Assembly (NCBI GenBank): GCA_965217775.1
Contig: CBDCJH010000002.1
Coordinates: forward strand, 5,632,001-5,696,000
Origin: Acidobacteriota bacterium
GTDB taxonomy: Bacteria; Acidobacteriota; UBA6911; RPQK01; JAJDTT01
Length of the DNA stretch: 64,000 nt
Direction: 5' to 3'
The position numbers and the translations under genes were made by a program. The notes under the pieces were generated by a model, which worked only from the letters and a program-made list of their open reading frames with translations, was not told where the DNA came from and did not search any database. Position 1 is the first letter of the stretch. Every line of letters begins with the position of its first letter. Shown in pieces: positions 46,185 through 62,081 of this stretch.

Positions 46185-46255
46185 CTCTTGGGCCGTCTCA
46201 GGAGCGGCGTCCTTCCCATGGCCGGAGGTCCCGAAATCATGTAGATTTGGACATC

Positions 46256-47248
46256 ATGTTGAATCACCCGCGATTGCTTTTCTCCGCTCTTTTGTTGGTC
46301 ATTACGGTGGCTGCCACGCCAGCCAACCCGTTCTCGCCTCAGGACAAGAAACAGTCTGAGGGTGACCAGGCAGGGCAGTTGGTAGAAGACCAGATGCTGG
46401 ACGAAGCCCGCACCGTGGGCAAGCCCCGGTCTCGAGCGGAATTCAGTGCGTGGCAGGAGATCAGTGAGGCGACTGATGTTCGCAAGCAGGCCCGGCTGGC
46501 GGAGAGATTCCTGAAGAAATTTCCCGATAGCGGACTGACTGCGTGGGCCCACCTTGCGATTGCCAACGCGGCTTTTTCGCGCAACGATATCGATCGTTTC
46601 ATTCGGCACGGAGAAGACGCTCTGCTCGAGCTTCCCGACACCCCCGAGCTGCTGGCGCCGTTGGCCAATATCTACTCCGAAAGCAAGAGGACCGACCGGG
46701 CGACCGACTACGCCACCCGAGCCCTCCAACTGTTGGACCAGATGGAGAAACCGATGGGCCAGGCCACGGTCGATTGGATTGCCATGAAGCAGGGGTGGGC
46801 GGGGGACGCACACTATGCATTGGGTCGATCCATCCTGGAAGTGTGGACCAAGTCTCCCAACAAACCGGTCAAGGATCTTGAAGTAGCGGTGGAACACCTG
46901 AAGCAGACTCTGAAGATGAATCCGGGACACGGTTATGCCGCGTTCCGTCTCGGATTTGCCGCGTCCCGGACCCACGACTACGATACCGCCCTGTTGGCCT
47001 ATGCTCGCGCGGCGGTGGTGGAGGGGCCGGCCGCGGAATCGGCCAAGGGGCATGTGAGGAGGCTCCACGACGGTCTGCGAAACGTTCCCAATTCCCGATG
47101 GGCCTCGACCAACGCCAGCAATATCATCCGGGACGATAGAGAGCGGCTCGCGGCGGAGATGGACGCGAAGGAGCAGGAGTACTCGCGCCTGGCCGCGGAG
47201 TACGACAGTGCCGCGCCTGAAATCGCCGCCCCGCCGTCTCTGCAGTGA
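46256..47248 (+). CDS. Exported TPR-like hypothetical protein
   Basis: Signal peptide; FLKKFPDS; helical TPR-like repeats (AHYALG, AAFRLG). Confidence 0.65.
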   Translation: MLNHPRLLFSALLLVITVAATPANPFSPQDKKQSEGDQAGQLVEDQMLDEARTVGKPRSRAEFSAWQEISEATDVRKQARLAERFLKKFPDSGLTAWAHLAIANAAFSRNDIDRFIRHGEDALLELPDTPELLAPLANIYSESKRTDRATDYATRALQLLDQMEKPMGQATVDWIAMKQGWAGDAHYALGRSILEVWTKSPNKPVKDLEVAVEHLKQTLKMNPGHGYAAFRLGFAASRTHDYDTALLAYARAAVVEGPAAESAKGHVRRLHDGLRNVPNSRWASTNASNIIRDDRERLAAEMDAKEQEYSRLAAEYDSAAPEIAAPPSLQ

Positions 47249-47288
47249 CTCGCCGCAAGCAGTTTTCTTTCCTGCAGGACCGATCGAC

Positions 47289-48029
47289 ATGAAACTGACG
47301 GAAGACGTCTATCTGGTGGGCGGCGGCGACACCGGTTTCAACATTTCCAATCGCATGGACTGCCACGTGTTCGTGATTGGAGGGGAAGACGAACTGGCCC
47401 TGGTGGACGCCGGATTCGACGGGCCCGGGAAGATCCTGAGCAACATTGAGAACGATGGTCTGGATCCGGGGAAGATCCGCCGGATCTTCGTCACCCACTA
47501 TCATGCCGATCATGTGGGGGCCCTGGCCCAGTTGAAGCGCGAATTGGGCGCCACCGTCATCGCCGGAAAGGAAGCGGCGCCGACGATCCGAAACGGGGAC
47601 GCGGAGCAGACCGGTCTGGCCTGGGCTCAAGAGTTCGGCTTTTATCCGCCGGAGTTCCGCTGGGAGGCTTGCGAAGTCGAGGAGGAAATGGAGGACGGGG
47701 ACAGGTTCGAGGTTGGAGGTCTGGAACTCACGTCCATCGCCACCCCGGGTCATTGCAGCGGCCACTATTCCCTCCTCTTGAAGGGCCGGGACCGAACCTG
47801 TCTTCTGGCCGGGGACCAGGTGTTCTGGGGCGGTGCGGTGGTCCTCCAGAACGTCCGTGATTCGAGCATTCAGGATTGTGCGGCCTCCATGCAGAAGCTG
47901 CTGAACTACGACTTTGACGCTCTGCTTCCGTCTCACCTGGCCTTCTCGCTGGAGCGCGGAAAGCGCCACGTCGAGGCGGGAGCCAAGGCGTTCGAACAGA
48001 CCGGTCTTCCCAGAAATCTGTTCGGTTGA
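47289..48029 (+). CDS. Metallo-beta-lactamase-fold hydrolase
   Basis: LVDAG, THYHADHVG, TPGHCSGH, LAGD and LLPSH. Confidence 0.9.
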   Translation: MKLTEDVYLVGGGDTGFNISNRMDCHVFVIGGEDELALVDAGFDGPGKILSNIENDGLDPGKIRRIFVTHYHADHVGALAQLKRELGATVIAGKEAAPTIRNGDAEQTGLAWAQEFGFYPPEFRWEACEVEEEMEDGDRFEVGGLELTSIATPGHCSGHYSLLLKGRDRTCLLAGDQVFWGGAVVLQNVRDSSIQDCAASMQKLLNYDFDALLPSHLAFSLERGKRHVEAGAKAFEQTGLPRNLFG

Positions 48030-48568
48030 TTCAAATGGTCTGGTGCCTTCCCATTCTGATGCTGGCCGCGTTGGCCACCTCCGAAGGCGCAGGGCAGAAG
48101 TTGTCCGCCAAGGGCTTCTTTTTGGAAGTCCCCTATGTCAGACAAGCGGAGAACTATTGTGGTCCCGCAGTGCTCGCCATGCTCCTGCGCTACTGGAATC
48201 ATCCGGCCGATCACCGGGAACTGGCGGGACGTTTCCGGCCCTTTCCGAAAAAGGGCCTGAGCGGTCTCGAACTGAAGAAGCTGGCGGCCGGGGAGGGATT
48301 CCAGGCCTACTCGTTTGCCGGCGACACGCCCGAAATGCTCGAGCACCTGCGGCAGGGACGGCCTCTGATCACCGTGATCGCCCCCTCCGTCCTGACGGCC
48401 AACAATCACTACGTGGTGCTGGTCGGGTGGGACGAATCCCGCCGGGAATGGATCGTGCATGATCCGGTGAAGGGACCCTATCAGCGGCGGCCGGCGGGGG
48501 AGTTGGCGCGGCAGCGGTCGCGGCTGGAAAACTGGACGCTTCTGGTCATCCCCGAAATTCCATCCTGA
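48026..48568 (+). CDS. Secreted stand-alone C39-like cysteine peptidase (PA2778-like)
   Basis: Signal peptide; VPYVRQAENYCGPAVLAMLLRYW (Q..C), HYVVLVGWD (H) and VHDP (D); no ABC-transporter domain. Confidence 0.85.
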   Translation: MIQMVWCLPILMLAALATSEGAGQKLSAKGFFLEVPYVRQAENYCGPAVLAMLLRYWNHPADHRELAGRFRPFPKKGLSGLELKKLAAGEGFQAYSFAGDTPEMLEHLRQGRPLITVIAPSVLTANNHYVVLVGWDESRREWIVHDPVKGPYQRRPAGELARQRSRLENWTLLVIPEIPS

Positions 48569-48617
48569 GCCGGCTCCGGCAACAACCGCAATTGAGACTG
48601 ACTACAATGTCCGGCGT

Positions 48618-50348
48618 ATGTTCGGGCACGTCCGGCCGGCGCCGATTTCCGTCCGCGTCTCCCTGGCGGTATTGCTGAGCCTGCTCCTCGCTCCGCCCGC
48701 CTTGGCCGCCGGCACGGGTGAGCTTCTGGCCCGGGGCCGAACGGAACTGGAGGCGGAACGATACCAGGCCGCCGAGTCGCTCTTTCGGGAGGTTCTGGAG
48801 CAGGAGGCGTCCAACGGCGAGGCCTCCTTTCTACTCGGTCTGGCTTTGGCCAAGCAGGAGCGTTGGGCCGACGCCGAAAGGGAGCTGGAGCGTGCCATCC
48901 GGCTGAAGCCCGGCTACGCGGCGGCTCATGCGGAGCTGGCCGGCGTCTATTTCAAGCAGGACAGAAGGGATCAGGCCCGAGTCAGCCTGCGAACGGCGCT
49001 GAAGCTGGATCCTCAGAACAGCTATGCGCGGAGCTTTCTGGCCATCCTCTCCTATCTCCAGGACAGGCGGTTGGAGGCCCTTCACCACTGGAATCTGTTG
49101 GGCGAGCCGCACGTCGCTCAGATCGAAGTCGCGACTTCGGAAGACGCGGAGCCGAAGCTGGTGGAATCCCTCTTCCGATTAAACGAAGGCGAGGTTCTGG
49201 ACCGGAAACAGCTCCTGCAGTCGTATTGGGTGCAACACCGGTTCCGGCTGGGGCCGAGGTTCGGTTGGCAACTCGACCCGCAGCCGGGGGGACGATGGAA
49301 TCTGCGGGTCGACCTTCCTCCAGGTAGCGACTCTTTCTCCAACAAGACCGGGTCTCTGATCGAGAATTCCTCCCGAGCCGTCTTCAATCGGGAGATCGGT
49401 CTCGGGTTGCGGGACGGCCGAGGGCGGCGATTGGCGGGAGGGGTTCGGTGGGACGCTCCCCGGAAGCGGGCCGGGGCGTCCGCGTGGTTCCCCTTCTTTT
49501 CGTCCTCATCCGACCTTTTGCGTGTCGGCTTCGATCTCCGGGACGAGGATTGGAGCCATACCGCCTCGGGCACCGAATATGCTTATCGGACGGAAAAGGT
49601 CTTCGGCGCCTACGAATGGTTGATGTCCGACCGCAGGTCCCTTTCCTTCCATGGCGGGTACCAGCGCCAGTCTTTTCGATTCGACGGGGACACGACCGCT
49701 CTTCCACAGAGTCCTCACCTCTTGGCCGTGGGACTGGAATGGAATCAACTGTGGGGTCTGGACGCCGGGGAAAACGCGCGGTTGAGTTGGATGGCCCGGT
49801 TCGACGCCTTTTCGCCTCTCGCCGAAGCCGGAGAACCTTCCCACAGGATGATGTCGGGTCTGGGTATCGATTGGATGATGGCCAAGCGATCGGAGACGCG
49901 GCTGAGATTGTCGCTTCAGGGTGGAGTCTCGGGCCGGAACCTGCCGCTGGATCACTATTTCCTGTTCGGGATCGGGCCCGATGCCCGGCTGCCCCTCAAG
50001 GCCCATCCCGAACTGCGGGACGGCCGGAGAGGGAATAGTCCCATGGGGCGTGATTTCGTCCTCCTGAGTGCGGAACTGGGGCGGAGGCTCTGGCGGTGGA
50101 GGTTCCTCGAAGTGGGAGGATTCGTCTTCAGCGATACGGCGTTCGTCTCGGGCAGGCCGTTTCTTTCGGCAACGGGGGATTGGTTTCAGGACGTTGGAGT
50201 GGGGTTGCGTTTCAAGGTGTTGGGTCAGGAATTCCTGAATGTTTTCCTGGGGCTGGATGCTCGGAGCCGGACCTTTCATCACTGGGCCGGGCTTCCCAGC
50301 AGCCAGTTCGGCGGCGTTGGAACGGCGGCTGGGAGCGGTGGCTTGTAG
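48618..50348 (+). CDS. TPR + putative Omp85/BamA-TamA-like outer-membrane beta-barrel protein
   Basis: Signal peptide; 3-4 TPRs; amphipathic beta-strands; C-terminal FVFSDTAF..WFQDVGVGLRF..LNVFLGLD resembles the terminal strands of Omp85-type barrels. Confidence 0.6.
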   Translation: MFGHVRPAPISVRVSLAVLLSLLLAPPALAAGTGELLARGRTELEAERYQAAESLFREVLEQEASNGEASFLLGLALAKQERWADAERELERAIRLKPGYAAAHAELAGVYFKQDRRDQARVSLRTALKLDPQNSYARSFLAILSYLQDRRLEALHHWNLLGEPHVAQIEVATSEDAEPKLVESLFRLNEGEVLDRKQLLQSYWVQHRFRLGPRFGWQLDPQPGGRWNLRVDLPPGSDSFSNKTGSLIENSSRAVFNREIGLGLRDGRGRRLAGGVRWDAPRKRAGASAWFPFFSSSSDLLRVGFDLRDEDWSHTASGTEYAYRTEKVFGAYEWLMSDRRSLSFHGGYQRQSFRFDGDTTALPQSPHLLAVGLEWNQLWGLDAGENARLSWMARFDAFSPLAEAGEPSHRMMSGLGIDWMMAKRSETRLRLSLQGGVSGRNLPLDHYFLFGIGPDARLPLKAHPELRDGRRGNSPMGRDFVLLSAELGRRLWRWRFLEVGGFVFSDTAFVSGRPFLSATGDWFQDVGVGLRFKVLGQEFLNVFLGLDARSRTFHHWAGLPSSQFGGVGTAAGSGGL

Positions 50349-50428
50349 CCGCCGAACTCCGGAGGAACGGTGGGGGTAGGAAGGAACGGGTGAAAGAAAG
50401 AATGGGGGACAAGACTGCCCCCCATTCC
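50332..50428. repeat. REP doublet at the boundary of TBDR unit 1
   Basis: GGAG-CGGTGGCTTGTAGCCGCCG ... GGGGGACAAGACTGCCCCC; homologous to 54904-55000 and 59679-59756. Confidence 0.75.
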
Positions 50429-50467
50429 GAGCGGAAAGCAAATGGTGCGTCTACCCGCGGGAAAGCG

Positions 50468-50884
50468 TCAGGGCTCGCCCCGATCGTACGTATGTACCAG
50501 GACGACCACGACGAAGACGATGAGGCCCGTGATGACCACCCAGCTCATAAAGGACAGACCCAGCAGGCCGGCCTGGAACTGCTCGTTCATCTGCTCGCTT
50601 TCCCAGGCCAGCCGGGCCAGCGTCTCGTCGTCCAGCGTGGGTACCGCGACCGCGATCTGCTCCAGGTCGAAAAGGTGTCCCAGACGATCCTGAACCGCCG
50701 GGTGACGAAGCAGGGTCTGAACTTCACGAATATTGTCGGCGCGTGCGGCCGTCCGTTCCGAGATCCGGCCCTTCAGCTCCTCGATCGATACCAGGTGGAC
50801 CGCCTTCTGAGCCGGGATGGGACCGGCCTGCAGGCTCGTCGAGAAGACCAGGAGGACCGTAAGGAACAAAGAGATGGCTTTCAT
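50468..50884 (-). CDS. PA2779-family-like protein, copy 1 (signal peptide, AG motif, C-terminal TM helix)
   Basis: HLVSIEEL..ADNIREVQTLL..AVPTLDDETLARLA..FQAG followed by a hydrophobic tail. Confidence 0.7.
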   Translation of the reverse strand: MKAISLFLTVLLVFSTSLQAGPIPAQKAVHLVSIEELKGRISERTAARADNIREVQTLLRHPAVQDRLGHLFDLEQIAVAVPTLDDETLARLAWESEQMNEQFQAGLLGLSFMSWVVITGLIVFVVVVLVHTYDRGEP

Positions 50885-50964
50885 TGTTTATGACCTTTGC
50901 ATCTGAATGGTGACAACCCTGTTTCCATGGACCCGTCCACGGCGCAGCCCGCCGCCGGCGATCC

Positions 50965-53900
50965 TCAGAAGTTGATCTTCCAGTAGAGCTGGATGATCCG
51001 CGGATCCAAGGTGTTGCCGATTTTTCCGAAGCCCTGGGGACTGTCCACGCTGTTGCCCGCCTCGCGCCAGTTGACCCGGTTGAAGGCGTTGAACATCTCC
51101 GCCGCGAAGCGGAAACTCACACCTTCGCTGATCTGGAAATCCTTCATGAGCGAAATGTCTTCCTGCATGAATCCGCAGTTCTGCGCACTGGGATGGACGC
51201 GGAAGTTCCCCAACGTGAAATTGGCCGGCGGACTGAATGCGGCGGGATTGAAGATACGGTCCCGTCCCGATTGGTTGGGATCGAAGTCGCCGCAACTGAC
51301 GCCGGTCGTGGGCTTGACGCCGTGATTCCAGACCGCCCACGCGGGACCCATATAGGGAAGGAACTGTCCCGTGCCGACGGTCAGGGGATTGCCGGCGTGG
51401 TAGACGATGTGACCGGCAACTCTCCAGCCGCCGACCAGAAGGTTGGCCAATCGGCCGACGCCGCCGCCGAAGGTCTTGCCTCTTCCGAAGGGCAACTCCC
51501 ACGAAAAGCTCGCCTTGGTCGCCCAGGAGCGGTTGAACGGCACAATTGTCTTGGAGGAACTCCAGGTATCCCAATGCTGCAAGGATGACCCGGCGCGGGG
51601 CGCGAAGCTGCCCCTCTCCCGGACGTCCCCCGAAGTCAGCGATTTGGCAATGGTGTGCGACAGCATGAAGTTCAACCCGGTGGAGAACCGCTTCTGCAGA
51701 ATCAGGATGGCCGAGTGGTAGAGGTTGTAACCCGAGTGGGAGTTCAACTGGGCCACCCAGTTGTACTGGGGAAAGCGCCGCTGGGACTGCCCCACGGTTC
51801 CGGTGAATCCCGGATAAGGCCGGGTGTAACCGGCGTCTCTGGCGGCCTGGGAATCGATATCCTGCAGCAGGAGGTTTCCGAGAGCGAGATAGCTCAGGGG
51901 CAGTTGGTTGTAACGGGCGATCTGGGTGCCGACGACTCCGTGGCCCAACAGTCCGATGTATTCGGCAGTGAACACCATATCCCAGGGGAGCTCCCGCTCG
52001 ATGGCCAGACCCAACCTCTGGGCGGTCCCCTGCTGGGTCTCGTTGACGTCCACGAAACCGACCGAGGAGCCGTTGATCAGGGAAGGGTTCAGGAACGGAA
52101 GGTTGGTGGGCAGAATGTTGATGCCCTGATCCCAGTTGAGGGCCGGCGTCAGACCGAAGTCCGGGGTCGTCGCCGTCACCGACGCGCCGAAACCCTGGTT
52201 GGGCATGCCGGCGCCGTTGCCCATTTCCCCGTTCAGGGGGAAGTGCATCAGCCCGTAATAGCCTCGCGCCACGGTCTTGTCGTTCAATTGATAGGCCAGA
52301 CCCAGCCGCGGCCCCAAACTCCTGAAGCCGACGTTGAACGCCCGGACCCGGCCGTTGCGTCCCTCTCCCTCTCCGTAGAAGGTGAGCGCGCCCGGGAGGC
52401 CGCCCGCCTCCGGATTGGGAGTGTGGATGTCCATGAGGCCCCAGCGCCGGTAGGACTCATGGAAGGGTATGGGAATCTCCCACCGGAGGCCGTAGTTGAT
52501 GGTCAGCTTCGGCGTCGTCCGCCAGGAGTCCTGAACGTAGAAGGCCCAGGAGTAGCTGGTGACCTTCCTGCCGCTGGCGGTCTCTTGGAGGACTTCGTCC
52601 ACGTCGCCCATGAGGAAGGAGGCGAACCCGTCACCCGTCGAAGGAAAACCGGGCAGGCCGCTGGTGCGGTTGCGGAAGGTCCAGGTGCCCGCCGTGTGGT
52701 TTTCCGTGAGGAATTTCCCAGCCCAGATGCTGAGCTGGGCGCCGACCTTCACATTGTGGTTCCCGCTGGTCCAGGACAGGTCCATGAAGACGGGAACCGT
52801 CGCCTGGTAGTGAATGGCCGTGTCGGTGTTGTCACCGAAGCCGCCTCCTACTGCGCTCTGGATCCTCAGTCTGGGAATTGCGGGTGTCAACGCGCCCTTG
52901 ACGCAACCACCCGGACAATAGTTCGAATCGGGCGGCAATTTCCCCCATCCGAAGTTGATCCGGTTGATCCCGAGCCGGGTGCTGAAGAGGAGAGACGGGG
53001 ACACCGTCCAAAGGTGATTGAGTCGAAGCCGGTAGCCGCGGCTGTCGGCCCCACCGGACTGCAGCCGGTTGGGCGGCGTCAGAAAGCTCAGCTTCATATT
53101 GGGAGTGTCTTCGTAGCCGATCGTGACCTTGTGGTCCTCATGCTCGATGTCGGTCTTGAGATAGACCTTGTCGATGTCGAAGATGTCCGAACCCTCCCCC
53201 GAATAGTTGTTGGTCAGTCCGGCCCCGGGGATGTTCGGTCCTGGATACACGGTCATGAGGTGCTTGGCGACGCCGCCGATGCGGGCGTCGGGAATCGTGT
53301 TGTTGGGAAAGGGATCCCGCAGGAAGCCCCCCTGCCCATCCGGGCGGGTGGTGAGGGGGTCGTAGATCATGCCGGCCCGGATATCCCGGCCCATGACGTC
53401 GGTCCCGAGAGACGCACCGAGGATTTCGGTGAAGTTCCCACTTCGCATGAGCTCGGTCTGGACGGTTCCGATCCTTCCGGACGGTTGCGTGGACCACTCA
53501 TAACCGGTGTAGTTCATCATGAAGAAGGCCTTGTCCTTCACGATGGGGCCTCCCAGAATGAACCCCCACTCGTTCTGGATCTGTTCGCCTCTCTCCCGGG
53601 CGGTCCAGCGGCGCGCGTCCAGGATGTCGTTGCGGTGAAACAAGAAACCACTCCCGTGGAAATCGTTGGTTCCCGACTTGGTGATCATTTCGACGGACAC
53701 CCCGGAGTTGAAACCCTTCTCGGCATCCTGATTGGTCTCGATGCGAAACTCTTCGATCAGCTCGGGCGCCGGTCCGGTTTCGTCGCGCAGCCCCTGATGC
53801 CAGTTGATGCTGCTCTGGTGGCCGTCGGTGTTGTACCCGATGGGGTTCCGTTGAGGCCCGTTGTCGCCCACACCGTGGATGGTCCCCTTGTTCCCATCCC

Positions 53901-54438
53901 AGGTGGGTTTGAAGATCACGCCAGGCAGGGTATTGATCAGCACCATGGACTGCCGGACGAAGAAGCTCATGTGGACCGGAAGGACTTCGAGTACTTCCGA
54001 GTCCTGGGCGTGAGCCACGGTGGTGTCGGTGGTCTTGATCAGTGTCGCCGTACCCGCGACGGTGACCGTTTCCGTCACATCGCCGACCTCGAGCACGATG
54101 TTCACCGTCCGGGTCGTGTCCGAGGTGACTCGCTGTCCCGTGACCGTTTTGGTCTTGAACCCGGTCAGGCCGCCCGTGACCTCATATTCGCCGATCCCGA
54201 GGGCCTGGATCAGGTAGTAGCCGCTGTCGTTGCTCACCGACATTCTCTCGATGCCGGTGGCCGCGTTTCGAGCGGTCACCTCCGCACCGGGGATCACCCC
54301 GCCCGATGCGTCGGTGACGGTCCCCTGGATGTTGCCGGCGCCCTGCTGGGCGCGTTGCGCCTGAACCGGTCCACCGAGATGGAAGCCGAGGATCAGTACC
54401 AGTAGAAAGCAGAAAAGCAGGTGGGTTTTCGGTCTCAT
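50965..54438 (-). CDS. TonB-dependent receptor (Oar-like, N-terminal carboxypeptidase-regulatory-like domain), copy 1; alternative start 54531
   Basis: IQGTVTDASGGVIPGAEVT, TKSGTNDFHGS, YVQDSWRTTPKLTINYGLRWE, GPRLGLAYQ, FAAEMFNAFN and a terminal Phe. Confidence 0.92.
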   Translation of the reverse strand: MRPKTHLLFCFLLVLILGFHLGGPVQAQRAQQGAGNIQGTVTDASGGVIPGAEVTARNAATGIERMSVSNDSGYYLIQALGIGEYEVTGGLTGFKTKTVTGQRVTSDTTRTVNIVLEVGDVTETVTVAGTATLIKTTDTTVAHAQDSEVLEVLPVHMSFFVRQSMVLINTLPGVIFKPTWDGNKGTIHGVGDNGPQRNPIGYNTDGHQSSINWHQGLRDETGPAPELIEEFRIETNQDAEKGFNSGVSVEMITKSGTNDFHGSGFLFHRNDILDARRWTARERGEQIQNEWGFILGGPIVKDKAFFMMNYTGYEWSTQPSGRIGTVQTELMRSGNFTEILGASLGTDVMGRDIRAGMIYDPLTTRPDGQGGFLRDPFPNNTIPDARIGGVAKHLMTVYPGPNIPGAGLTNNYSGEGSDIFDIDKVYLKTDIEHEDHKVTIGYEDTPNMKLSFLTPPNRLQSGGADSRGYRLRLNHLWTVSPSLLFSTRLGINRINFGWGKLPPDSNYCPGGCVKGALTPAIPRLRIQSAVGGGFGDNTDTAIHYQATVPVFMDLSWTSGNHNVKVGAQLSIWAGKFLTENHTAGTWTFRNRTSGLPGFPSTGDGFASFLMGDVDEVLQETASGRKVTSYSWAFYVQDSWRTTPKLTINYGLRWEIPIPFHESYRRWGLMDIHTPNPEAGGLPGALTFYGEGEGRNGRVRAFNVGFRSLGPRLGLAYQLNDKTVARGYYGLMHFPLNGEMGNGAGMPNQGFGASVTATTPDFGLTPALNWDQGINILPTNLPFLNPSLINGSSVGFVDVNETQQGTAQRLGLAIERELPWDMVFTAEYIGLLGHGVVGTQIARYNQLPLSYLALGNLLLQDIDSQAARDAGYTRPYPGFTGTVGQSQRRFPQYNWVAQLNSHSGYNLYHSAILILQKRFSTGLNFMLSHTIAKSLTSGDVRERGSFAPRAGSSLQHWDTWSSSKTIVPFNRSWATKASFSWELPFGRGKTFGGGVGRLANLLVGGWRVAGHIVYHAGNPLTVGTGQFLPYMGPAWAVWNHGVKPTTGVSCGDFDPNQSGRDRIFNPAAFSPPANFTLGNFRVHPSAQNCGFMQEDISLMKDFQISEGVSFRFAAEMFNAFNRVNWREAGNSVDSPQGFGKIGNTLDPRIIQLYWKINF

Positions 54439-54596
54439 GAACCCTCCCACTAATGAATTGCGGAACCGAGGATTTTTCGTCCGCCCAAACAGCAGAAGGG
54501 CGTTCCTGGCTGAACTTAGGGAAGTCTGCATCGTCCTATCCTCCTTGGCGGGCATGCGGGCAGGTGTGGAAAAAAATCTCCCACTAGTTGCGGACG

Positions 54597-54626
54597 ACAC
54601 TACAGGAATTTGTCAGCAGAGGTCAA
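54597..54626 (-). promoter_or_regulatory. Putative sigma70 promoter of TBDR copy 1
   Basis: Minus strand TTGACC-N18-TAGTGT; homology with copy 2 ends just upstream of the -35. Confidence 0.45.
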
Positions 54627-54738
54627 GAACAGGACGTTCCCCATTGTTCTGGGAGTTCGCGAGAACAGGGGAAGCAGGGTTGAACGAGGATCGCGACGAA
54701 GCGGTCCCATTCCCGTGCTCCGGCCTAACCGAAGCGAC

Positions 54739-54788
54739 GTAGGGTGCCCGCTGTCGCCTCTTACGGCCCGGGGAGGGCGACCACAAGG
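54739..54788. repeat. GTAG-type REP doublet interrupted by an IS481 end
   Basis: GTAGGGTGCCCGCTGTCGCC...AGGGCGACCACAAGG|TGT; same context as 38214-38268. Confidence 0.7.
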
Positions 54789-54903
54789 TGTTTGGTGTCA
54801 AGATATCCTTTACAGGTTAGTCTTGATCCACCCGCCAGACCAGACGCGCATGAGCCTTTACGCCCTGGACCTGGTGCGGATGTACCTTCTGCGCGGCGAC
54901 TTT
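54789..54903 (-). mobile_element. IS481 right-end remnant (IR + last transposase codons)
   Basis: TGTTTGGTGTCAAGATATCCTTTACA matches the IR at 38269; the minus strand ends LVWRVDQD* versus LVWRVGQD* in the intact transposase. Confidence 0.82.
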
Positions 54904-55000
54904 CGAGCGGCGGCTTCCTAGCCGCCGAACTCCGGAGGAGGGGTGGAGCAGGGAGAGAAGTTGCGAAGGAAAGTATGGGGGACAAGACTGTCCCTCATTC
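54904..55000. repeat. REP doublet at the boundary of TBDR unit 2
   Basis: CGGCGGCTTCCTAGCCGCCG-AACTCCGGAGGA ... GGGGGACAAGACTGTCCC. Confidence 0.75.
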
Positions 55001-55290
55001 TAGCTGCCTTGGACTTGGAAGTTGTCCTGGACCCGGGTCCTGACGTCTTTGACCTGGTCCCAGACCTCGACTTCGAGCCGGTATTTCCCGGGTTCCAGGC
55101 TGCGCAGGTTCAACCTCTTGAGCAGGACCATTCTCCGGTCGGAGAAGAACTGGATCGATTCTCCTCGGCTGTCCGTGGCTTCCCCGATGACTTCGCCGTC
55201 GCGTGAAATTCGGTACGCCACCTGCATCTGGGGAGTATTGGAAGACTGGTCCATGCCGAAGTTTTAGAGGTGCAGGTAGACACCCAGCGG
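55000..55290 (-). pseudogene. 3' remnant of the GWxTD-domain gene
   Basis: Near-identical to 59767..60057; TAC->TAA nonsense change near 55264; 5' part deleted at an AGCGG microhomology. Confidence 0.9.
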
Positions 55291-55323
55291 AAAGCAAAGG
55301 GTGTGTCTACCCGCGGGAAAGCG

Positions 55324-55740
55324 TCAGGGCTCTCCCCGATCGTACGTGTGAACCAGAACGATCGCGACGAAGACGATGAGGCCCGTGATTACGACCCAGC
55401 TCATAAAGGACAGACCGAGAAGGCCAGCCTGGAACTGCTCGTTCATCTGCTCGCTTTCCCGGGCCAGCCGGGCCAGCGTCTCGCCGTCCAGCGTGGGTAC
55501 GGCGACCGCGATCTGCTCCAAGTCGAAAAGATGTCCCAGACGATCCTGCACCGCCTGCTGACGAAGCAGGGTCTGAACTTCACGAATATTGTCGGCGCGT
55601 ACGGCCGTCCGTTCCGAGATCCGGCCCTTCAGCTCCTCGATCGATACCAGGTGAACTGCCTTCTGAGCCGGGATGGGACCGGCCTGCAGGCTCGTCGAGC
55701 AGACCAGGAGGACCGTAAGGAACAAAGAGATGGCTTTCAT
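55324..55740 (-). CDS. PA2779-family-like protein, copy 2
   Basis: Paralog of 50468..50884 with a few substitutions. Confidence 0.7.
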   Translation of the reverse strand: MKAISLFLTVLLVCSTSLQAGPIPAQKAVHLVSIEELKGRISERTAVRADNIREVQTLLRQQAVQDRLGHLFDLEQIAVAVPTLDGETLARLARESEQMNEQFQAGLLGLSFMSWVVITGLIVFVAIVLVHTYDRGEP

Positions 55741-55820
55741 TGTTTATGACCTTTGCATCTGAATGGTGACAACCCTGTTTCCATGGAACCGTCCACGGCG
55801 CAGCCCGCCGCCGGCGATCC

Positions 55821-58800
55821 TCAGAAGTTGATCTTCCAGTAGAGCTGGATGATCCGCGGATCCAAGGTGTTGCCGATTTTTCCGAAGCCCTGTGGACTGT
55901 CCACGCTGTTGCCCGCCTCGCGCCAGTTGACCCGGTTGAAGGCGTTGAACATCTCCGCCGCGAAGCGGAAACTCACGCCCTCGCTGATTTGGAAATCCTT
56001 CATGAGAGAAATGTCTTCCTGCATGAATCCGCAGTTCTGCGCACTGGGATGGACGCGGAAGTTCCCCAACGTGAAATTGGGCGCCGTGCTGAATGCCGCG
56101 GGATTGAAGATACGATCCCGTCCCGTTTGGTTGGGGTCGAAGTCGCCGCAACTGACGCCGGTCGTGACCTTGACGCCGTGATTCCAGACCGCCCATGCGG
56201 GACCCATATAGGGAAGGGACTGTCCCGTGCCGACGGTCAGGGGATTGCCGGCGTGGTAGACGATGTGACCGGCGACCCTCCAGCCGCCGACCAGCAGGTT
56301 GGCCAATCGGCCGACGCCGCCACCGAAGGTCTTGCCTCGTCCGAAGGGCAGTTCCCACGAAAAGCTCGCCTTGGTCGCCCAGGAGCGGTTGAACGGCACT
56401 ATCGTCTTGGAGGAACTCCAGGTATCCCAATGCTGCAAAGAGGATCCGGCGCGGGGCGCGAAGCTGCCCCTCTCCCGGACGTCCCCCGAGGTCAGCGATT
56501 TGGCAATGGTATGGGACAACATGAAGTTCAACCCGGTGGAGAACCGCTTCTGCAGTATGAAGATGCCCGAGTGGTAGAGGTTGTAACCCGAGTGGGAGTT
56601 CAACTGGGCCACCCAGTTGTACTGGGGAAAGCGCCGCTGGGACTGCCCGACGGTTCCGGTGAATCCCGGATAGGGCCGGGTGTAGCCGGCGTCTCTGGCG
56701 GCCTGGGAATCGATATCCTGCAGCAGGAGGTTTCCGAGAGAGAGATTGCTCAGGGGCAATTGGTTGTAACGGGCGATCTGGGTGCCGATGACCCCATGGC
56801 CCAACAGGCCGATGTATTCGGCAGTGAACACCATATCCCAGGGGAGCTCCCGCTCGATGGCCAGACCCATCCTCTGGGCGGTCCCCTGCTGGGTCTCGTT
56901 GACGTCCACGAAACCGACCGAGGAGCCGTTGATCAGGGACGGGTTCAGGAACGGAAGGTTGGTGGGCAGAATGTTGATGCCCTGATCCCAATTGAGGGCC
57001 GGCGTCAGACCGAAGTCCGGGGTCGTTTTGGTCACCGAGGCGCCGAAACCCTGATTGGGCATGCCGAAACCGTTGGCCATTTCCCCCGCCACGGGGAAGT
57101 ACATCAGCCCGTAATAGGCCCGCGCTACGGTCTTTTCGTTCAATTGATACGCAAAACCCAGCCGCGGCCCGAAACTCCTGAAGCCGACGTTGAAGGCCCT
57201 GACCCGGCCGTTGCGTCCCTCACCGTCTCCGTAGAAGGTGAGACCGCCCGGGAGGCCGCCCGCCTCCGGATTGGGAGTGTGGATGTCCATGAGGCCCCAA
57301 CGCCGGTAGGACTCATGGAAGGGAATGGGGATCTCCCACCGGAGGCCGTAGTTGACGGTCAGCCGCGGCGTCGTCCGCCAGGAGTCCTGAGCGTAGAAGG
57401 CCCAACTGTAGCTGGTGACCTTCCGGCCGCTGGCGGTCTCCTGGAGGACTTCGTCCACGTCGCCCATGAGGAAGGAGGCGAACCCGTCACCCGTCGAAGG
57501 AAAACCGGGCAGACCGCTGGTGCGGTTGCGGAAGGTGTAGGTGCCCGCCGTGTGGTTTTCCACGTTGGCTCTCCCGGCCCAGATGCTGAGCTGGGCGCCG
57601 ACCTTCACATTGTGGTTCCCGCTGGTCCAGGACAGGTCCATGAAGACGGGAACCGTCGACTGGAAGTGCTCGGCCGTGTCGGTGTTGTCACCGAAGCCGC
57701 CTCCGACCGCGCTCTGGATCCTCAGTCTGGGGATCGCGCTCGTCAACGCGCCCTGGACGCAACCACCCGGACAATGGTCCGACGCGGGCGGCAATTTCCC
57801 CTCGCCGTAGGTGATCCGGTTGATCCCGAGCCGGGTGCTGAAGAGGAGCGACGGGTTCACCGTCCAAAGGTGATTGAGCCGAACCCGGTAGCTGCGGCTC
57901 TCAACCGCGACACTGTTCAGCCGGTTGGCCGGCGACAGGAAGCTCAGCTTCATATTGGGGGTGTCTTCATAGCCGATCGTGACCTTGTGGTCCTCATGCT
58001 CGATGTCGGTCTTGAGATAGACCTTGTCGATGTCGAAGATGTCCGAACCCACCCCCTCATAGTTGTTGGTCAGTCCGCCTTTGTTCGGTCCCGGATACGC
58101 GGTCATGAGGTGCTTGGCGACGCCGCCGATGCGGCTGGCGGGAATCGTGTTGTTGGGAAAGGGATCCCGCAGGAAGCCCCCCTGCCCGTCCGGCCGGGTG
58201 GTGAGGGGATCGTAGATCATGCCGGCCCGGACCTCCCGGCCCATGACGTCGGTCCCGAGAGACGCGCCGAGGATCTCGTTGAAATTCCCTTGTCGCATGG
58301 CCTCGGTCTGGACGGTTCCGATCCTTCCGGACGGTTGCGTGGACCACTCATAACCAGTGTAGTTCATCATGAAGAAGGCCTTGTCCTTGACGATGGGGCC
58401 TCCCAGAATGAACCCCCACTCGTTCTGGATCTGTTCGCCCTTCCCAGAGGCGGTCCACCGGCGCGCGTCCAGGATGTCGTTGCGGTGAAACAGGAAACCA
58501 CTCCCGTGGAATTCGTTGGTTCCCGACTTGGTGATCATTTCAACTGACACTCCGGAGTTGAATCCCTTCTCGGCGTCCTGATTGGTCTCGATGCGAAACT
58601 CTTGGATCAACTCGGGGGCCGGTCCCGTTTCGTCGCGCAACCCCTGATGCCAGTTGATGCTGCTCTGATGGCCGTCGGTGTTGTACCCGAGGGGGTTCCG
58701 GTGAGGTCCGTTGTCGCCCACACCGTGGATGGTCCCCTTGTTCCCACCCCAGCCGGGCTTGAAGATCACGCCGGGAAGGGTATTGATCAGCACCATGGAC

Positions 58801-59288
58801 TGCCGGACGAAGAAGCTCATGTGGACCGGAAGGACCTCGAGTACTTCCGAGTCCTGGGCGTGAGCCACGGTGGTGTCGGTCATCTTGACCAGTGTCGCCG
58901 TACCCGCGACGGTGACCGTTTCCGTCACGTCGCCGACCTCAAGCACGATGTTCACCGTCCAGGTCGTGTCCGAGGTGACTCGCTGTCCGGTCACGACCTT
59001 GGTCTTGAACCCGGTCAGGCCGCCCGTGACCTCGTATTCGCCGATCCCGAGGGCCTGGATCAGGTAGTAGCCGCTGTCGTTGCTCACCGAAATTCTCTCG
59101 ATGCCGGTGGCCGCGTTTCGAGCGGTCACCTCCGCACCGGGGATCACCCCGCCCGATGCGTCGGTGACGGTCCCCTGGATGTTGCCGGCGCCCTGCTGGG
59201 CGCGTTGCGCCTGAACCGGTCCACCGAGATGGAAGCCGAGGATCAGTACCAGTAGAAAGCAGAAAAGCAGGTGGGTTTTCGGTCTCAT
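55821..59288 (-). CDS. TonB-dependent receptor, copy 2; alternative start 59381
   Basis: Collinear paralog of 50965..54438 with clustered substitutions. Confidence 0.92.
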   Translation of the reverse strand: MRPKTHLLFCFLLVLILGFHLGGPVQAQRAQQGAGNIQGTVTDASGGVIPGAEVTARNAATGIERISVSNDSGYYLIQALGIGEYEVTGGLTGFKTKVVTGQRVTSDTTWTVNIVLEVGDVTETVTVAGTATLVKMTDTTVAHAQDSEVLEVLPVHMSFFVRQSMVLINTLPGVIFKPGWGGNKGTIHGVGDNGPHRNPLGYNTDGHQSSINWHQGLRDETGPAPELIQEFRIETNQDAEKGFNSGVSVEMITKSGTNEFHGSGFLFHRNDILDARRWTASGKGEQIQNEWGFILGGPIVKDKAFFMMNYTGYEWSTQPSGRIGTVQTEAMRQGNFNEILGASLGTDVMGREVRAGMIYDPLTTRPDGQGGFLRDPFPNNTIPASRIGGVAKHLMTAYPGPNKGGLTNNYEGVGSDIFDIDKVYLKTDIEHEDHKVTIGYEDTPNMKLSFLSPANRLNSVAVESRSYRVRLNHLWTVNPSLLFSTRLGINRITYGEGKLPPASDHCPGGCVQGALTSAIPRLRIQSAVGGGFGDNTDTAEHFQSTVPVFMDLSWTSGNHNVKVGAQLSIWAGRANVENHTAGTYTFRNRTSGLPGFPSTGDGFASFLMGDVDEVLQETASGRKVTSYSWAFYAQDSWRTTPRLTVNYGLRWEIPIPFHESYRRWGLMDIHTPNPEAGGLPGGLTFYGDGEGRNGRVRAFNVGFRSFGPRLGFAYQLNEKTVARAYYGLMYFPVAGEMANGFGMPNQGFGASVTKTTPDFGLTPALNWDQGINILPTNLPFLNPSLINGSSVGFVDVNETQQGTAQRMGLAIERELPWDMVFTAEYIGLLGHGVIGTQIARYNQLPLSNLSLGNLLLQDIDSQAARDAGYTRPYPGFTGTVGQSQRRFPQYNWVAQLNSHSGYNLYHSGIFILQKRFSTGLNFMLSHTIAKSLTSGDVRERGSFAPRAGSSLQHWDTWSSSKTIVPFNRSWATKASFSWELPFGRGKTFGGGVGRLANLLVGGWRVAGHIVYHAGNPLTVGTGQSLPYMGPAWAVWNHGVKVTTGVSCGDFDPNQTGRDRIFNPAAFSTAPNFTLGNFRVHPSAQNCGFMQEDISLMKDFQISEGVSFRFAAEMFNAFNRVNWREAGNSVDSPQGFGKIGNTLDPRIIQLYWKINF

Positions 59289-59445
59289 GAACCCTCCCAC
59301 TAATGAATTGCGGAACCGAGGATTTTTCGTCCGCCCAAACAGCAGAAGGGCGTTCCTGGCTGAACTTAGGGAAGTCTGCATCGTCCTATCCTCCTTGGCG
59401 GGCATGCGGGCAGGTGTGGAAAAAATCTTCCACTAGTTACGGACA

Positions 59446-59475
59446 AATCTACAGGAATTTGTCAGCAGAGGGCAA
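59446..59475 (-). promoter_or_regulatory. Putative sigma70 promoter of TBDR copy 2
   Basis: Minus strand TTGCCC-N18-TAGATT, same spacer as copy 1. Confidence 0.4.
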
Positions 59476-59521
59476 GAACAATTTCCCCGGTGTCGTTAGT
59501 ATGTGAAGTATCCGCACCTAT

Positions 59522-59664
59522 TAGCACGCACTTCTCACCAGGGGGTGCGATGATTGCGCCCAGCGCAGTCTGTGCCGGAGAAACGTTGACAAAAATCGAG
59601 TAAATGGCTGACGATAAGTTTTTTTTCATAATAATCTCAGCGACCTGGTGAGAAATGCGGGCTA
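59522..59664. mobile_element. Putative MITE with 21-bp TIRs beginning and ending in TA
   Basis: TAGCACGCACTTCTCACCAGG versus (reverse complement) TAGCCCGCATTTCTCACCAGG, 19/21 identical; AT-rich non-coding interior. Confidence 0.65.
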
Positions 59665-59678
59665 TGGGGCAGCAGCGC

Positions 59679-59756
59679 GGAGCGGCGGTTTCCTAACCGC
59701 CGGACTCCCATACACGTTGCGAAAAAAAGAATGGGGGACATCCCTGTCCCCCCTCC
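59679..59756. repeat. REP doublet at the boundary of TBDR unit 3
   Basis: GGAG-CGGCGGTTTCCTAACCGCCG and the inverted GGGGACATCCCTGTCCCCC-CTCC. Confidence 0.8.
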
Positions 59757-59766
59757 TACTGCCCTC

Positions 59767-61407
59767 CTAGCTGCCTTGGACTTGGAAGTTGTCCTGGACC
59801 CGGGTCCTGACGTCTTTGACCTGGTCCCAGACCTCGACTTCGAGCCGGTATTTGCCGGGTTCCAGGCTGCGCAGGTTCAACCTCTTGAGCAGGACCATTC
59901 TGCGGTCGGAGAAGAACTGGATCGATTCTCCTCGGCTGTCCGTGGCTTCCCCGATGACTTCGCCGTCGCGTGAAATTCGGTACGCCACCTGCATCTGGGG
60001 CGTATTGGAGGACTGGTCCATGCCGAAGTTGTAGAGGTGCAGGTAGACACCCAGCGGGAGCTTCTTGGAAAAGCTCTTGTCGATGCTGGGCCGGATCTTG
60101 ACGTCTCCCAGGACGAACATCTGGTCCTGATTGGGCGCCTCGGGAAGCTCCTGCATGTGGTTGGAAAGCAGCATTGAACTGCTGCTCAGCTTCTCCCTTT
60201 CCCGCATGCTGGGCGGTGGAATGATGCCGTGTTTGACGGCGCCGATGTTGTTGCTGGACAGGTCCTTCATGATTAGGTCGAGCTTGTAGCGGGTCCCACT
60301 GTCCAGTAGCAGCACCTTCTGGTAGGTGGCCCGCCCCTCCAGACCCCTCATCAGCCGTTCGGGTCCGAACGAAATCACCAGATCCTGATCGAATTCTTCG
60401 ATGAACTTGTTGCTGAGGCTGGTGACCACGCCGTAGAGTCCGACCCGGGCCGAGTGCGCCTCGCCGTCGGGTTCGAATGACAGGAATCTGTTTCGTATCT
60501 CGACCGTGATCGGAACCAGAACCTGCCCGTCGTTGAGCTTGAAGTAGTCGCTCCGAACGCGGAAGGGGAGGTTGGAATAGCCGACCTCCACCTTGACCAA
60601 CTCCTTGAGGTCCTTGTACTTGATCTTCTTGGGGACCATGACCCGGGAGAAGATCTCGTAACGCCGGAAGGGGTTGTTGTTGTGGAGCCGGGTCTCGTAG
60701 GCGGTGCTCCTGCCGCCGATCAGGGAAGGACGATGCTGCTTGTCGCTGATGCCCAACTGCTCCGACATGGTCAGGCCATATCCATCGAAATGGAGCAGAG
60801 CGTCCTTTTCGTCGGGGAACAGGGCCAGCTTGTACGTCCCCGTGTAGGTGCGGTCCACGAATTCCAGAACGATGTCGTCCCCGACACCCTCGAGGTGCCG
60901 GTAGCGCCACACCTCCAAGGGGTGGACCACCGTACTGCCCCCGCCCTCGCTGAAGGAGCGATTGTAATTGCCCCCAGTCACATAGCTCTCAATTTCATGA
61001 GGTGGTCCGTGGAGGATGTAGATCATCCCCCGGTCCGTCTTCCAGCCGGGCTTGCCGGCGTAGAATCGCTCGTTGACGTAGGCGATGCGCCGATAGTGTT
61101 CTTCCTTGAATTCGTTGATGGCCGTCCTCAGGTCCGGGTCCCGGCGGCGCCAGAACTGTTCGATGAACAACTCCTTCTCCTCGGGACTGGTCAGGCTCTT
61201 GAAAACGGATTCCTCCTCGTCGCTGATGATGTAGGTGACGTCCTGGTTCAGCCAGCGCTGGTAGTAATCCTCCGCTTCCTCCTGTTGAACGGCGGAGGTG
61301 TCCCTGTCGTCCTTTTTCTCTTTGGCCAGTGCCTGGTCAGGCAAGGAGAGTGACGCGATGAGCAAGAGGAGCAGCGACAGCAACGGAGGGTGGTGTTGCT
61401 TCTTCAT
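59767..61407 (-). CDS. GWxTD-domain protein (exported)
   Basis: Signal peptide; WLNQDVTYIISDEE, FIEQFWRRRDP, EEHYRRIAY, PGWKTDRGMIYILHGPP and EVWRY. Confidence 0.92.
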   Translation of the reverse strand: MKKQHHPPLLSLLLLLIASLSLPDQALAKEKKDDRDTSAVQQEEAEDYYQRWLNQDVTYIISDEEESVFKSLTSPEEKELFIEQFWRRRDPDLRTAINEFKEEHYRRIAYVNERFYAGKPGWKTDRGMIYILHGPPHEIESYVTGGNYNRSFSEGGGSTVVHPLEVWRYRHLEGVGDDIVLEFVDRTYTGTYKLALFPDEKDALLHFDGYGLTMSEQLGISDKQHRPSLIGGRSTAYETRLHNNNPFRRYEIFSRVMVPKKIKYKDLKELVKVEVGYSNLPFRVRSDYFKLNDGQVLVPITVEIRNRFLSFEPDGEAHSARVGLYGVVTSLSNKFIEEFDQDLVISFGPERLMRGLEGRATYQKVLLLDSGTRYKLDLIMKDLSSNNIGAVKHGIIPPPSMREREKLSSSSMLLSNHMQELPEAPNQDQMFVLGDVKIRPSIDKSFSKKLPLGVYLHLYNFGMDQSSNTPQMQVAYRISRDGEVIGEATDSRGESIQFFSDRRMVLLKRLNLRSLEPGKYRLEVEVWDQVKDVRTRVQDNFQVQGS

Positions 61408-61581
61408 GATCGCGATTGGTCGAAGCGTCCCCGGACCCGCGATCGGAACCGGACGCCTATCGGTACGAACGCCGTTTCACACGACTATAACAAATATCGG
61501 GCTGGCCGCGACATGCGCGGCCAGCCCGATGGTGAGGTTTCCGAGCGGAAAGCAAAAAGCGCGTCTACCCGCAGTGAAGCG

Positions 61582-62001
61582 TTAAGGCTCTCCCCGATCG
61601 TAGGTGTGAACCAGAACGACCACGACGAAGACGATGAGGCCGGTGATGACCACCCAGCTCATGAAGGACAAACCGAGCAGCATGCCGGCCTGGAACTGCT
61701 CGTTCATCTGCTCACTTTCCCGGGCCAGCCTGGCCAATGTCTCGTCGTCCAGCGTGGGTACCGCGACCGCGATCTGCTCCAGGTCGAACAGGTGTCCCAG
61801 ACGATCCTGCACCGCCGGGTGACGAAGCAGGGTCTGAACTTCACGAATATTGTCGGCGCGTGCGGCCGTCCGTTCCGAGATCTGGCCCTTCAACTCCTCG
61901 ATCGATACCAGGTGGACCGCCTTCTGAACCGGGATGGGACCGGCCTGCAGGCTCGTCGAGAAGACCAGGAGGACCGTAAGGAACAAAGAGATGGCTTTCA
62001 T
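61582..62001 (-). CDS. PA2779-family-like protein, copy 3
   Basis: Paralog with one extra Met directly after the AG motif (FQAG-MLLG). Confidence 0.7.
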   Translation of the reverse strand: MKAISLFLTVLLVFSTSLQAGPIPVQKAVHLVSIEELKGQISERTAARADNIREVQTLLRHPAVQDRLGHLFDLEQIAVAVPTLDDETLARLARESEQMNEQFQAGMLLGLSFMSWVVITGLIVFVVVVLVHTYDRGEP

Positions 62002-62081
62002 TGTTTATGACCTTTGCAGCTGAATGGTGACAACCTTGTTTCCATGGAACCGTCCACGGCGCAGCCCGCCTCCGGCGATCC

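Follow-up and report, generated by a model that had tools for sequence, protein, structure and literature searches.

A putative split form of the PA2778/PA2779 envelope module facing an amplified receptor unit in an Acidobacteriota genome

Background

The DNA considered here, referred to as the window, is a stretch of 64,000 nucleotides from an Acidobacteriota bacterium (contig CBDCJH010000002.1 of assembly GCA_965217775.1, positions 5,632,001 to 5,696,000). Within it, a gene for a free, exported cysteine peptidase of the C39 type is followed by one for a predicted outer-membrane barrel protein, and both face, on the opposite strand, the genes of three small proteins with an Ala-Gly motif ahead of a hydrophobic C-terminal helix, each lying behind a gene for a TonB-dependent-receptor-like protein. 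The locus is read here, with moderate confidence, as a split three-gene form of the PA2778/PA2779 envelope module, in which the peptidase would cut the small protein after a conserved [A/G]-Gly pair.

A preliminary description of the same DNA had proposed that the peptidase and the barrel form a processing or export system with three membrane-bound substrates, each tied to a receptor of its own. Its gene coordinates and its arrangement of peptidase, barrel and small genes were all recovered as open reading frames (ORFs). The translations of the small genes contain the signal-peptide-like N-termini, the FQAG motif, the hydrophobic C-terminal stretch and the HTYDRGEP ending that it reported, the sole indel among the three being one additional Met that follows AG in copy 3. 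By ORF coordinates, the spacing from receptor stop to small-gene start is exactly 80 bp in 3/3 units, as had been noted. The inventory was correct in what it listed but left out a gene for a GWxTD-domain protein (59767-61407) and a remnant of its 3' end (55000-55290), both of which bear on the history of the locus.

Results

The peptidase and the barrel protein

The translated peptidase (P0001) begins with a hydrophobic signal and passes the Pfam thresholds of both C39 families, Peptidase_C39_2 (PF13529, 59.4 bits, cut-off 24) and Peptidase_C39 (PF03412, 49.1 bits, cut-off 22). Residues C45 and H128 are invariant in 30/30 homologues, and the earlier call of a C39-like peptidase is confirmed. 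When a profile of the family was compared with the PDB, the double-glycine peptidase domains of ComA, PCAT1 and the LahT type were nearest (3.5e-15 to 1e-08). Peptidase-containing ATP-binding cassette (ABC) exporters (PCAT) carry the peptidase fused to the transporter and process cytoplasmic precursors; P0001, with 180 aa and an N-terminal signal, has no such architecture, and its matches to transporter families stay at E about 1e-3 and cover the peptidase part only. The NCBIfam model of the PA2778 family (NF033920) gives 53.1 bits, under its cut-off of 150, over profile positions 4-146 of 255, which are its peptidase half; the tetratricopeptide repeat (TPR) half of that profile (166-255) is matched, with 24 bits, by the product of the next gene, P0002. 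The peptidase is present in one copy in the genome. Its ORF opens with a TTG at 48026 that overlaps the stop of the upstream gene, which encodes a protein of the metallo-beta-lactamase (MBL) fold, and the ATG at residue 4 is the likelier start.

Pfam detected in P0002 a TPR as the sole match, with none to the Omp85 family (PF01103). An AlphaFold2 (AF2) model built on a 28-row alignment is nonetheless confident, with a predicted local distance difference test score (pLDDT) of 86.1 and a predicted template modelling score (pTM) of 0.81. It places, after a signal peptide, the TPR at about 33-160, a POTRA-like beta-alpha-alpha-beta-beta unit at about 165-233 and a barrel at about 259-558, in which 15 strands are counted by DSSP, the tail being unmodelled. 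The best PDB match by Foldseek is TamA (8us2, 1.1e-14), accompanied by BamA entries, FhaC (4ql0) and Sam50 (7e4h), and the best 50 matches are all Omp85 proteins of these four kinds. Omp85 proteins combine POTRA domains with a barrel of 16 strands; by its modelled fold of POTRA and barrel, P0002 is a predicted member of the superfamily, in line with the TPR-bearing, Omp85-like barrel of the preliminary description.

A homologue, P0175, matches PF01103 at 1.7e-6, and the alignment has conserved columns at H463 (within 'LRAH'), F504 and D506. Omp85 proteins carry the motifs (V/I)RG(Y/F), in loop 6, and FxDxG, to which these columns could correspond. Searched against a library of 1.84 billion proteins, the barrel profile retrieved 602 clusters at E <= 1e-30, and 7/10 homologues tested (nine of at least 608 aa and one of 478 aa) bear an N-terminal Peptidase_C39_2 domain. 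A word-based homologue search for the barrel returned close relatives almost exclusively, and no TpsA-like or TamB-like partner gene was seen beside the barrel gene.

Two other identities for P0002 were tried and set aside. Slam lipoprotein transporters, which consist of a TPR plus a 14-stranded barrel, were considered because Slam genes adjoin receptors; they were ruled out, as the small proteins carry no lipobox Cys and Omp85 proteins account for every one of the 50 fold matches listed. TPR-porin polysaccharide exporters (PgaA, BcsC) gave weak matches, to the TPR part of P0002 only.

The small proteins and the [A/G]-Gly site

Each small protein is composed of a signal peptide, a helical part of about 85 residues, FQAG at 103-106, a hydrophobic helix and an eight-residue tail. 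Members of the PA2779 family have a signal peptide, a helical body and a C-terminal membrane helix, and their genes stand beside a PA2778-type peptidase; the window's small proteins show these traits, the same-strand adjacency to the peptidase being found in more distant genomes. Against the PA2779 model (NF033919), copies 1 and 3 score 24.9 bits (E 1.7e-5) and 23.4 bits, under the cut-off of 40. Among 38 aligned relatives, 34 match NF033919 (E <= 1; best E 1.1e-23) and 20 match Pfam DUF6627, which does not match the window's copy. On these sequence comparisons the small proteins are a divergent branch of PA2779/DUF6627, and the kinship with PA2778/PA2779 suggested earlier is real, although the scores fall short of both NCBIfam cut-offs.

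The 38 proteins were drawn from all three forms of the module described below. Their alignment has only three nearly invariant columns, L84, L89 and G106, the last being the Gly of the AG motif to which the preliminary description had drawn attention. An AG or GG pair is found 0-12 residues ahead of the membrane helix in 38/38 proteins; at P2, the aligned column holds 18 Ala against 6 Gly in 34 non-redundant rows. Residues 83-106 are the best conserved part (mean pairwise identity 0.37 versus 0.24 for the membrane helix), while the membrane helix is conserved in composition only and many members end directly after it. A conserved helix before the site followed by a generic anchor is as expected if the peptidase recognises the helix N-terminal to the cut.

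AF2 models the small protein with low confidence (pLDDT 57.8, pTM 0.27), as helices, an unstructured segment at 105-111 and a helix at 112-134. A complex prediction for peptidase residues 24-180 and small-protein residues 21-118, run twice with alignments and with no controls, scored 0.00 and is uninformative either way.

Small proteins outnumber the peptidase by 4:1 in this genome, 4:1 in genome G021 and 3:1 in G026. The fourth paralogue of this genome (G000:C2:4311324-4311710, plus strand; locus L001:9816-10244) is 64% identical, reads FRAGG before its anchor and lies distant from any peptidase, between a 923-aa ORF with no Pfam match and an Abhydrolase_10 gene. Counterparts with 59-66% identity occur in all eight other genomes of the genus.

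Conservation of the three-gene core

Co-occurrence of the three genes in other genomes, which the preliminary description had named as a check, is strong both in the order and in the phylum. The order-level sample comprised 41 tool-chosen genomes; the present one (G000) and the unpublished G016 are counted in its tallies. The first search detected the small protein in 17 of them; the peptidase occurs in 18, as does a long barrel match, and the genomes concerned are the same. The small gene of G028 was found with the PA2779 hidden Markov model only, and in G008 the barrel match lies at a contig end and is confined to residues 1-217. None of the three core genes is present in the six genomes of the sister genus. 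In G021, G026, G019, G033, G022 and G028 the genes follow one another as small protein, peptidase and barrel on one strand with short gaps, and in G027 a contig end breaks into the same arrangement. When neighbouring ORFs were compared all against all, the three core families alone were common to most of these loci, with a receptor family present in three.

Across the phylum, the PA2779 model matches 43/301 genomes, in 23 of them over the cut-off. At least 23 of these 43, counted from the best 150 matches, also have the peptidase half of the PA2778 model matched immediately behind the small gene. Twenty phylum loci were scanned with the order-level profiles; they had been chosen because PA2779 and peptidase matches were adjacent and are therefore a biased sample. 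The split form, like that of the window, accounts for 5/20 loci. In another 5/20, peptidase, TPR, POTRA-like region and barrel are fused in a single frame of about 700-790 aa. A peptidase-TPR protein with no barrel within the flank is encoded in 9/20, with a lipobox-like Cys after the signal in 8/9, and one locus is broken by a contig end. The peptidase-TPR protein without a barrel corresponds to the catalogued PA2778/PA2779 pair. The natural fusions of peptidase and barrel argue strongly that the separate genes of the window act together.

In the fused proteins (L043-L047) an Ala/Pro-rich stretch of roughly 50-80 residues separates peptidase and TPR, which in principle is long enough for an outer-membrane-anchored peptidase to reach far into the periplasm.

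Layout and triplication of the locus

The features of the locus are collected in Table 1. The receptor-like genes encode about 1200 aa each, and the receptor-small units on the minus strand converge on the plus-strand peptidase and barrel genes, with 120 bp between small gene 1 and the barrel gene.

Table 1. Genes and other features of the locus, in window coordinates
Feature	Position	Strand	Basis or remark
MBL-fold gene	47208-48029	+	directly upstream of peptidase gene
C39-like cysteine peptidase P0001, free, secreted, 180 aa	48026-48568	+	ORF and translation
P0002, TPR, POTRA-like domain and Omp85-type barrel, outer-membrane protein, 576 aa	48618-50348	+	prediction
Terminator-like hairpin, 13 pairs, behind small gene 1, between the convergent operons	50399-50428	-	scan
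Small protein copy 1, P0003, 138 aa	50468-50884	-	ORF and translation
TonB-dependent-receptor-like gene 1, apparent Oar-type architecture	50965-54600	-	Pfam; true start uncertain
Duplication scars: copy of barrel-gene 3' end and spacer (54905-55000, 81%); remnant of GWxTD-gene 3' end (55000-55290)	54905-55290	not assigned	DNA comparison
Small protein copy 2, P0004, 138 aa, 94% identical to copy 1	55324-55740	-	ORF and translation
Receptor-like gene 2, 93% amino-acid identity to gene 1	55821-59405	-	Pfam and comparison
GWxTD-domain protein P0006, 546 aa, signal peptide	59767-61407	-	TIGR04514, 112.3 bits
Strong terminator-like hairpin, 15 pairs (12 G-C), between small gene 3 and GWxTD gene	61496-61530	-	scan
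Small protein copy 3, P0005, 139 aa, extra Met right after AG	61582-62001	-	ORF and translation
Receptor-like gene 3, runs off the window; 638 aa seen, 98% identical to gene 1	62082->64000	-	ORF and comparison

The three receptor-small pairs are the product of a recent tandem duplication of one unit. Over 4211 nt, unit A (50427-54631) shows 94.0% identity to unit B (55283-59480); unit A (50425-52883) and unit C (61539-64000) share 96.4% DNA identity, and the receptor proteins of the three units are 93-98% identical. Recent amplification to three tandem copies accounts for the apparent 1:1 pairing of substrate and receptor; the three independent pairings assumed in the preliminary description are one pairing in amplified form (94-96% DNA identity).

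The segment between units 1 and 2 preserves traces of this process, namely a 291-bp copy of the 3' end of the GWxTD gene (98.3% identical) and, adjoining it, the copy of the barrel-gene end with its spacer. According to these scars, the GWxTD gene formerly belonged to the amplified unit, as did the junction to the barrel gene. The intact GWxTD gene sits between units 2 and 3, and the ancestral unit is receptor-small-GWxTD, with GWxTD as third gene. In 5/5 other genomes of the genus that were fetched, MBL-fold, peptidase and barrel genes run in that order towards a GWxTD gene, which is preceded on its own strand by the small gene and the receptor gene; four of them have one receptor-small unit and G005 has two. 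The number of near-identical small genes per genome ranges from 1 to 3 across nine genomes of the genus. In G007, of the same genus, a second, partial copy of the barrel gene (G007:C21:43692-45026, minus strand; residues 132-576, 92% identical) stands beside a second small gene, which indicates that rearrangement at the locus is recurrent.

Four proteins are encoded upstream of the peptidase (41572-48029, plus strand): one of 1034 aa, a DUF1501 protein, one with TPR and the MBL-fold protein. The genes of the 1034-aa, DUF1501 and MBL-fold proteins remain neighbours of the module in the genus; in G027 they do so too, converging there with the barrel gene.

Receptors and GWxTD genes

TonB-dependent transporters of the Oar type have a CarboxypepD_reg domain at the N-terminus, a plug and a 22-stranded barrel. 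The receptors combine CarboxypepD_reg, OMP_b-brl_4 (E about 1e-161) and TonB_dep_Rec_b-barrel (32.8 and 38.9 bits, cut-off 27); a Pfam Plug domain found no match at E <= 0.01 in those of the window. Weak Plug matches occur in linked receptors of other genomes, with 21.6 bits in G028 (below the cut-off of 23.9) and 27.9 bits in G021 (over it). In this genus, in G027 (64% identical) and in G028 (about 27%), the gene immediately upstream of the small gene encodes a receptor of this architecture, and the linkage in G027 is probably the same ancestral arrangement as in the genus. A small-gene paralogue of G021 has such a receptor 3 kb upstream. No receptor match was found at the module loci of G021, G026, G019, G033, G022 and G039, nor at any of the 20 phylum loci. 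The preliminary description had counted the receptor as part of the system; with linkage limited to this genus and three further genomes of the order, it is not a defining part of the module, and the association may still carry functional meaning.

Genome-wide, there are 61 OMP_b-brl_4 matches, 24 GWxTD genes and one TPR-POTRA-Omp85 barrel. By their coordinates, several GWxTD genes have a receptor gene no more than a few kb away, as in the case of 3315482-3317980 and 3318237-3318593, and a GWxTD gene occupies the same position at the locus in 5/5 other genomes of the genus examined. Receptor and GWxTD gene look like a module of their own, into which the small gene was inserted in this clade.

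In G039 an orphan small gene (locus L033, G039:C245, 3529-8910, minus strand) directly follows the gene of a 1435-aa protein with five CarboxypepD_reg repeats, the domain that heads the small-gene-linked receptors elsewhere.

Transcription signals

Contigs from RNA libraries of two studies cover receptor and small gene at 90-99% identity. One of them, of 1058 nt (X2 record 9), runs from the receptor 3' end across the 80-bp gap and through the complete small gene, and ends at 50425, at the predicted hairpin; DNA may be present in such libraries, and contigs of this kind cannot prove a single transcript. For the peptidase and barrel genes, sparse contigs of low depth came from four RNA runs and say nothing on expression.

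The sigma-54 consensus pattern TGGCAC-N5-TTGCA gave 7 matches with up to 2 mismatches, against 12.6 expected, and its sole match in the locus (49231-49246) falls inside the barrel gene. Scans for sigma-70-like promoters and for terminators were at chance overall (4 versus 2.7 and 14 versus 15.2 expected), and from the latter only the two long hairpins of Table 1 were used, as hints. A promoter-like sequence, TGGACA-16 nt-AAAAAT, recurs inside the receptor 3' ends (51020-51047, 55876-55903 and 62137-62164, minus strand), about 135 bp upstream of the ATG of each small gene, in a scan that was overall at chance level. Judged by these sites, the small genes may have their own promoter.

Discussion

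A model for the module

In the reading favoured here, the small protein would be exported by Sec and tethered to the inner membrane by its C-terminal helix, so that its helical domain of about 85 residues would sit in the periplasm. There, the free C39 peptidase would cooperate with the TPR-POTRA-Omp85 protein of the outer membrane. The peptidase would recognise the conserved helix ahead of the site, as double-glycine peptidases do leaders, and would most likely cut after the [A/G]-Gly, here A105-G106, freeing the periplasmic domain and leaving an anchor peptide of about 32 residues. The Omp85 protein would either dock peptidase and substrate at the outer membrane via its TPR or pass the freed domain across. 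One peptidase would serve several small-protein paralogues, four in this genome, and the main substrate gene would, in the genus, be the one placed between the Oar-type receptor and GWxTD genes, convergent with the peptidase-barrel operon.

Several points weigh against this model. The window's proteins lie under the curated cut-offs of both NCBIfam families, and AF2 could model the small protein with low confidence only. At canonical double-glycine sites P2 is Gly, and these sites stand near the N-terminus of a cytoplasmic precursor; the site considered here has mostly Ala at P2, as far as the alignment goes, and is near the C-terminus of an exported protein. The [A/G]-Gly pair beside a membrane helix could also be a simple hinge. 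In the lipoprotein form the barrel is absent, and translocation through it therefore cannot be the core function. Finally, the peptidase of the fused and lipoprotein forms would be held at the outer membrane and the site at the surface of the inner one, so that cleavage depends on linkers long enough to span that distance.

A more far-reaching version of the model, which we regard as doubtful, is an undescribed two-membrane sorting pathway: Sec-exported proteins held in the inner membrane by a C-terminal anchor would be released at [A/G]-Gly by a C39 peptidase associated with the outer membrane, possibly by transfer instead of simple hydrolysis, and passed through or displayed on the Omp85 barrel, and in this lineage the released domain of about 85 residues would serve the adjacent Oar-type receptor as a secreted capture protein or as cargo.

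Alternative explanations

The small protein might not be a substrate at all. As a membrane-anchored tether, regulator or inhibitor it could bind the TPR, the true substrates being other envelope proteins, a possibility that deserves to be kept in view even if it is rather unlikely. A TPR, which is a protein-binding module, always accompanies the peptidase, fused or on the next gene; the helix in which the small protein is best conserved could provide a surface for binding, and cleavage of the small protein is a proposal derived from sequence. The invariant Cys and His (30/30) together with the invariant [A/G]-Gly (38/38) form, however, the pattern expected of an enzyme and its site, and several paralogues per peptidase suit substrates better than a stoichiometric regulator. 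It is very unlikely, in turn, that the product is the hydrophobic C-terminal peptide, bacteriocin-like or holin-like, with the exported helical domain as a leader of the Nif11 kind. The nearest solved relatives of the peptidase do remove leaders from bacteriocin-type precursors, the conserved 'L-S/D-D-x-x-L...A-G' resembles leader consensus sequences, and weak matches exist to Nif11 (2/38, best E 0.015) and Phage_holin_2_3 (3/38, E 0.051). These family matches are nevertheless at chance level, a Sec signal ahead of a leader is not the known arrangement, and the anchor, conserved in composition only (0.24 versus 0.37) and ending many of the proteins, argues against a sequence-specific peptide product. 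Homology to Nif11 or NHLP leaders was accordingly set aside, 2/38 members at E 0.015 being too weak.

The neighbouring receptors suggest another role for the barrel, that of an assembly factor for their own barrels, assisted by peptidase and small protein. The insertases TamA and BamA are indeed its best fold matches, and in the genus, G027 and G028 the small gene immediately follows a receptor gene. With receptor matches missing from the 20 phylum loci and from the six module loci of the order listed above, with 61 OMP_b-brl_4 matches in the genome for one such barrel, and with a module that also occurs without the barrel, we consider this role highly improbable. A toxin-immunity pair tied to type VI secretion has been raised for PA2778 and its small neighbour in Pseudomonas aeruginosa: in one passage of the preprint 10.1101/733030, PA2778 is listed among putative enzymes upstream of small genes that lose transposon insertions when the H1 type VI secretion system is active, and the preprint does not follow the pair up. 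This is scarcely credible for the present locus, where the peptidase has a signal peptide and its relatives are lipoproteins or are fused to an outer-membrane barrel, features that make it a resident of the envelope and not a cytoplasmic cargo.

Comparison with known systems

With the PA2778/PA2779 pair (NF033920/NF033919; DUF6627) the module shares the design of the small protein and the adjacency of the same peptidase domain. It differs in that the window's peptidase has no TPR of its own, the repeat being on the next gene and joined there to POTRA and Omp85 barrel, and in that the small gene has been relocated to a receptor operon on the opposite strand. The catalytic domain is homologous to the C39 domains of ABC exporters (ComA, PCAT1, LahT-type), with the Cys and His conserved, and the presumed substrate likewise has a pair of small residues after a conserved helix. 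Unlike in those systems, the enzyme is exported and comes without an ABC transporter, and the site is C-terminal in an anchored protein with mostly Ala at P2. The barrel resembles TamA, BamA and the two-partner-secretion protein FhaC in its predicted POTRA and barrel fold, whereas it has a single POTRA-like domain that follows a TPR, and its relatives are fused to the peptidase.

C-terminal sorting is known from sortase with LPXTG, exosortase with PEP-CTERM and rhombosortase with GlyGly-CTERM. As in those signals, an exported protein ends in a motif, a membrane helix and a short tail, and one enzyme faces several substrates; the enzyme family is unrelated, however, the substrates are one small family, and there is no sign of transfer to an acceptor. 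With Oar, a TonB-dependent transporter required for secretion of PopC in Myxococcus xanthus (PMC6434023), the window's receptors share the CarboxypepD_reg domain N-terminal to the barrel. Oar exports a periplasmic protein and offers a precedent for a receptor that moves such a protein outward; in contrast to the Oar-PopC pair described there, handling of the small protein by the receptor is not evidenced, and the linkage is confined to few lineages.

The literature search returned no functional study of PA2778/PA2779, Pseudomonas aeruginosa papers mentioning the genes in passing. No papers were found on DUF6627 or on GWxTD, and none of the best matches for the combination of a periplasmic C39 peptidase, TPR and Omp85 was relevant by title or abstract. 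The claim of an undescribed architecture in the preliminary description is too broad, the pair being catalogued (NCBIfam PA2778/PA2779 and Pfam DUF6627), although no functional study was among the papers found.

Conclusions

What is new at this locus is the receptor and GWxTD context and the triplication, the families themselves having been catalogued by NCBIfam and Pfam. The locus exemplifies copy-number change, from one to three units, within a genus, and ties the module evolutionarily to Oar-type receptors and to GWxTD proteins, both of which are poorly understood. The PA2778/PA2779 pair, named from Pseudomonas aeruginosa, occurs in soil, marine and host-associated bacteria, and it takes a series of forms: a lipoprotein peptidase-TPR, a free peptidase with a TPR-Omp85 protein, and a single fused peptidase-TPR-Omp85 protein. 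Together with the invariant catalytic pair and the invariant [A/G]-Gly, this series leads to the hypothesis that a peptidase of the double-glycine type acts in the periplasm on a C-terminally anchored protein. If this is true, C39 enzymes would extend beyond ABC exporters, and the Omp85 superfamily would gain a member with a new accessory domain.

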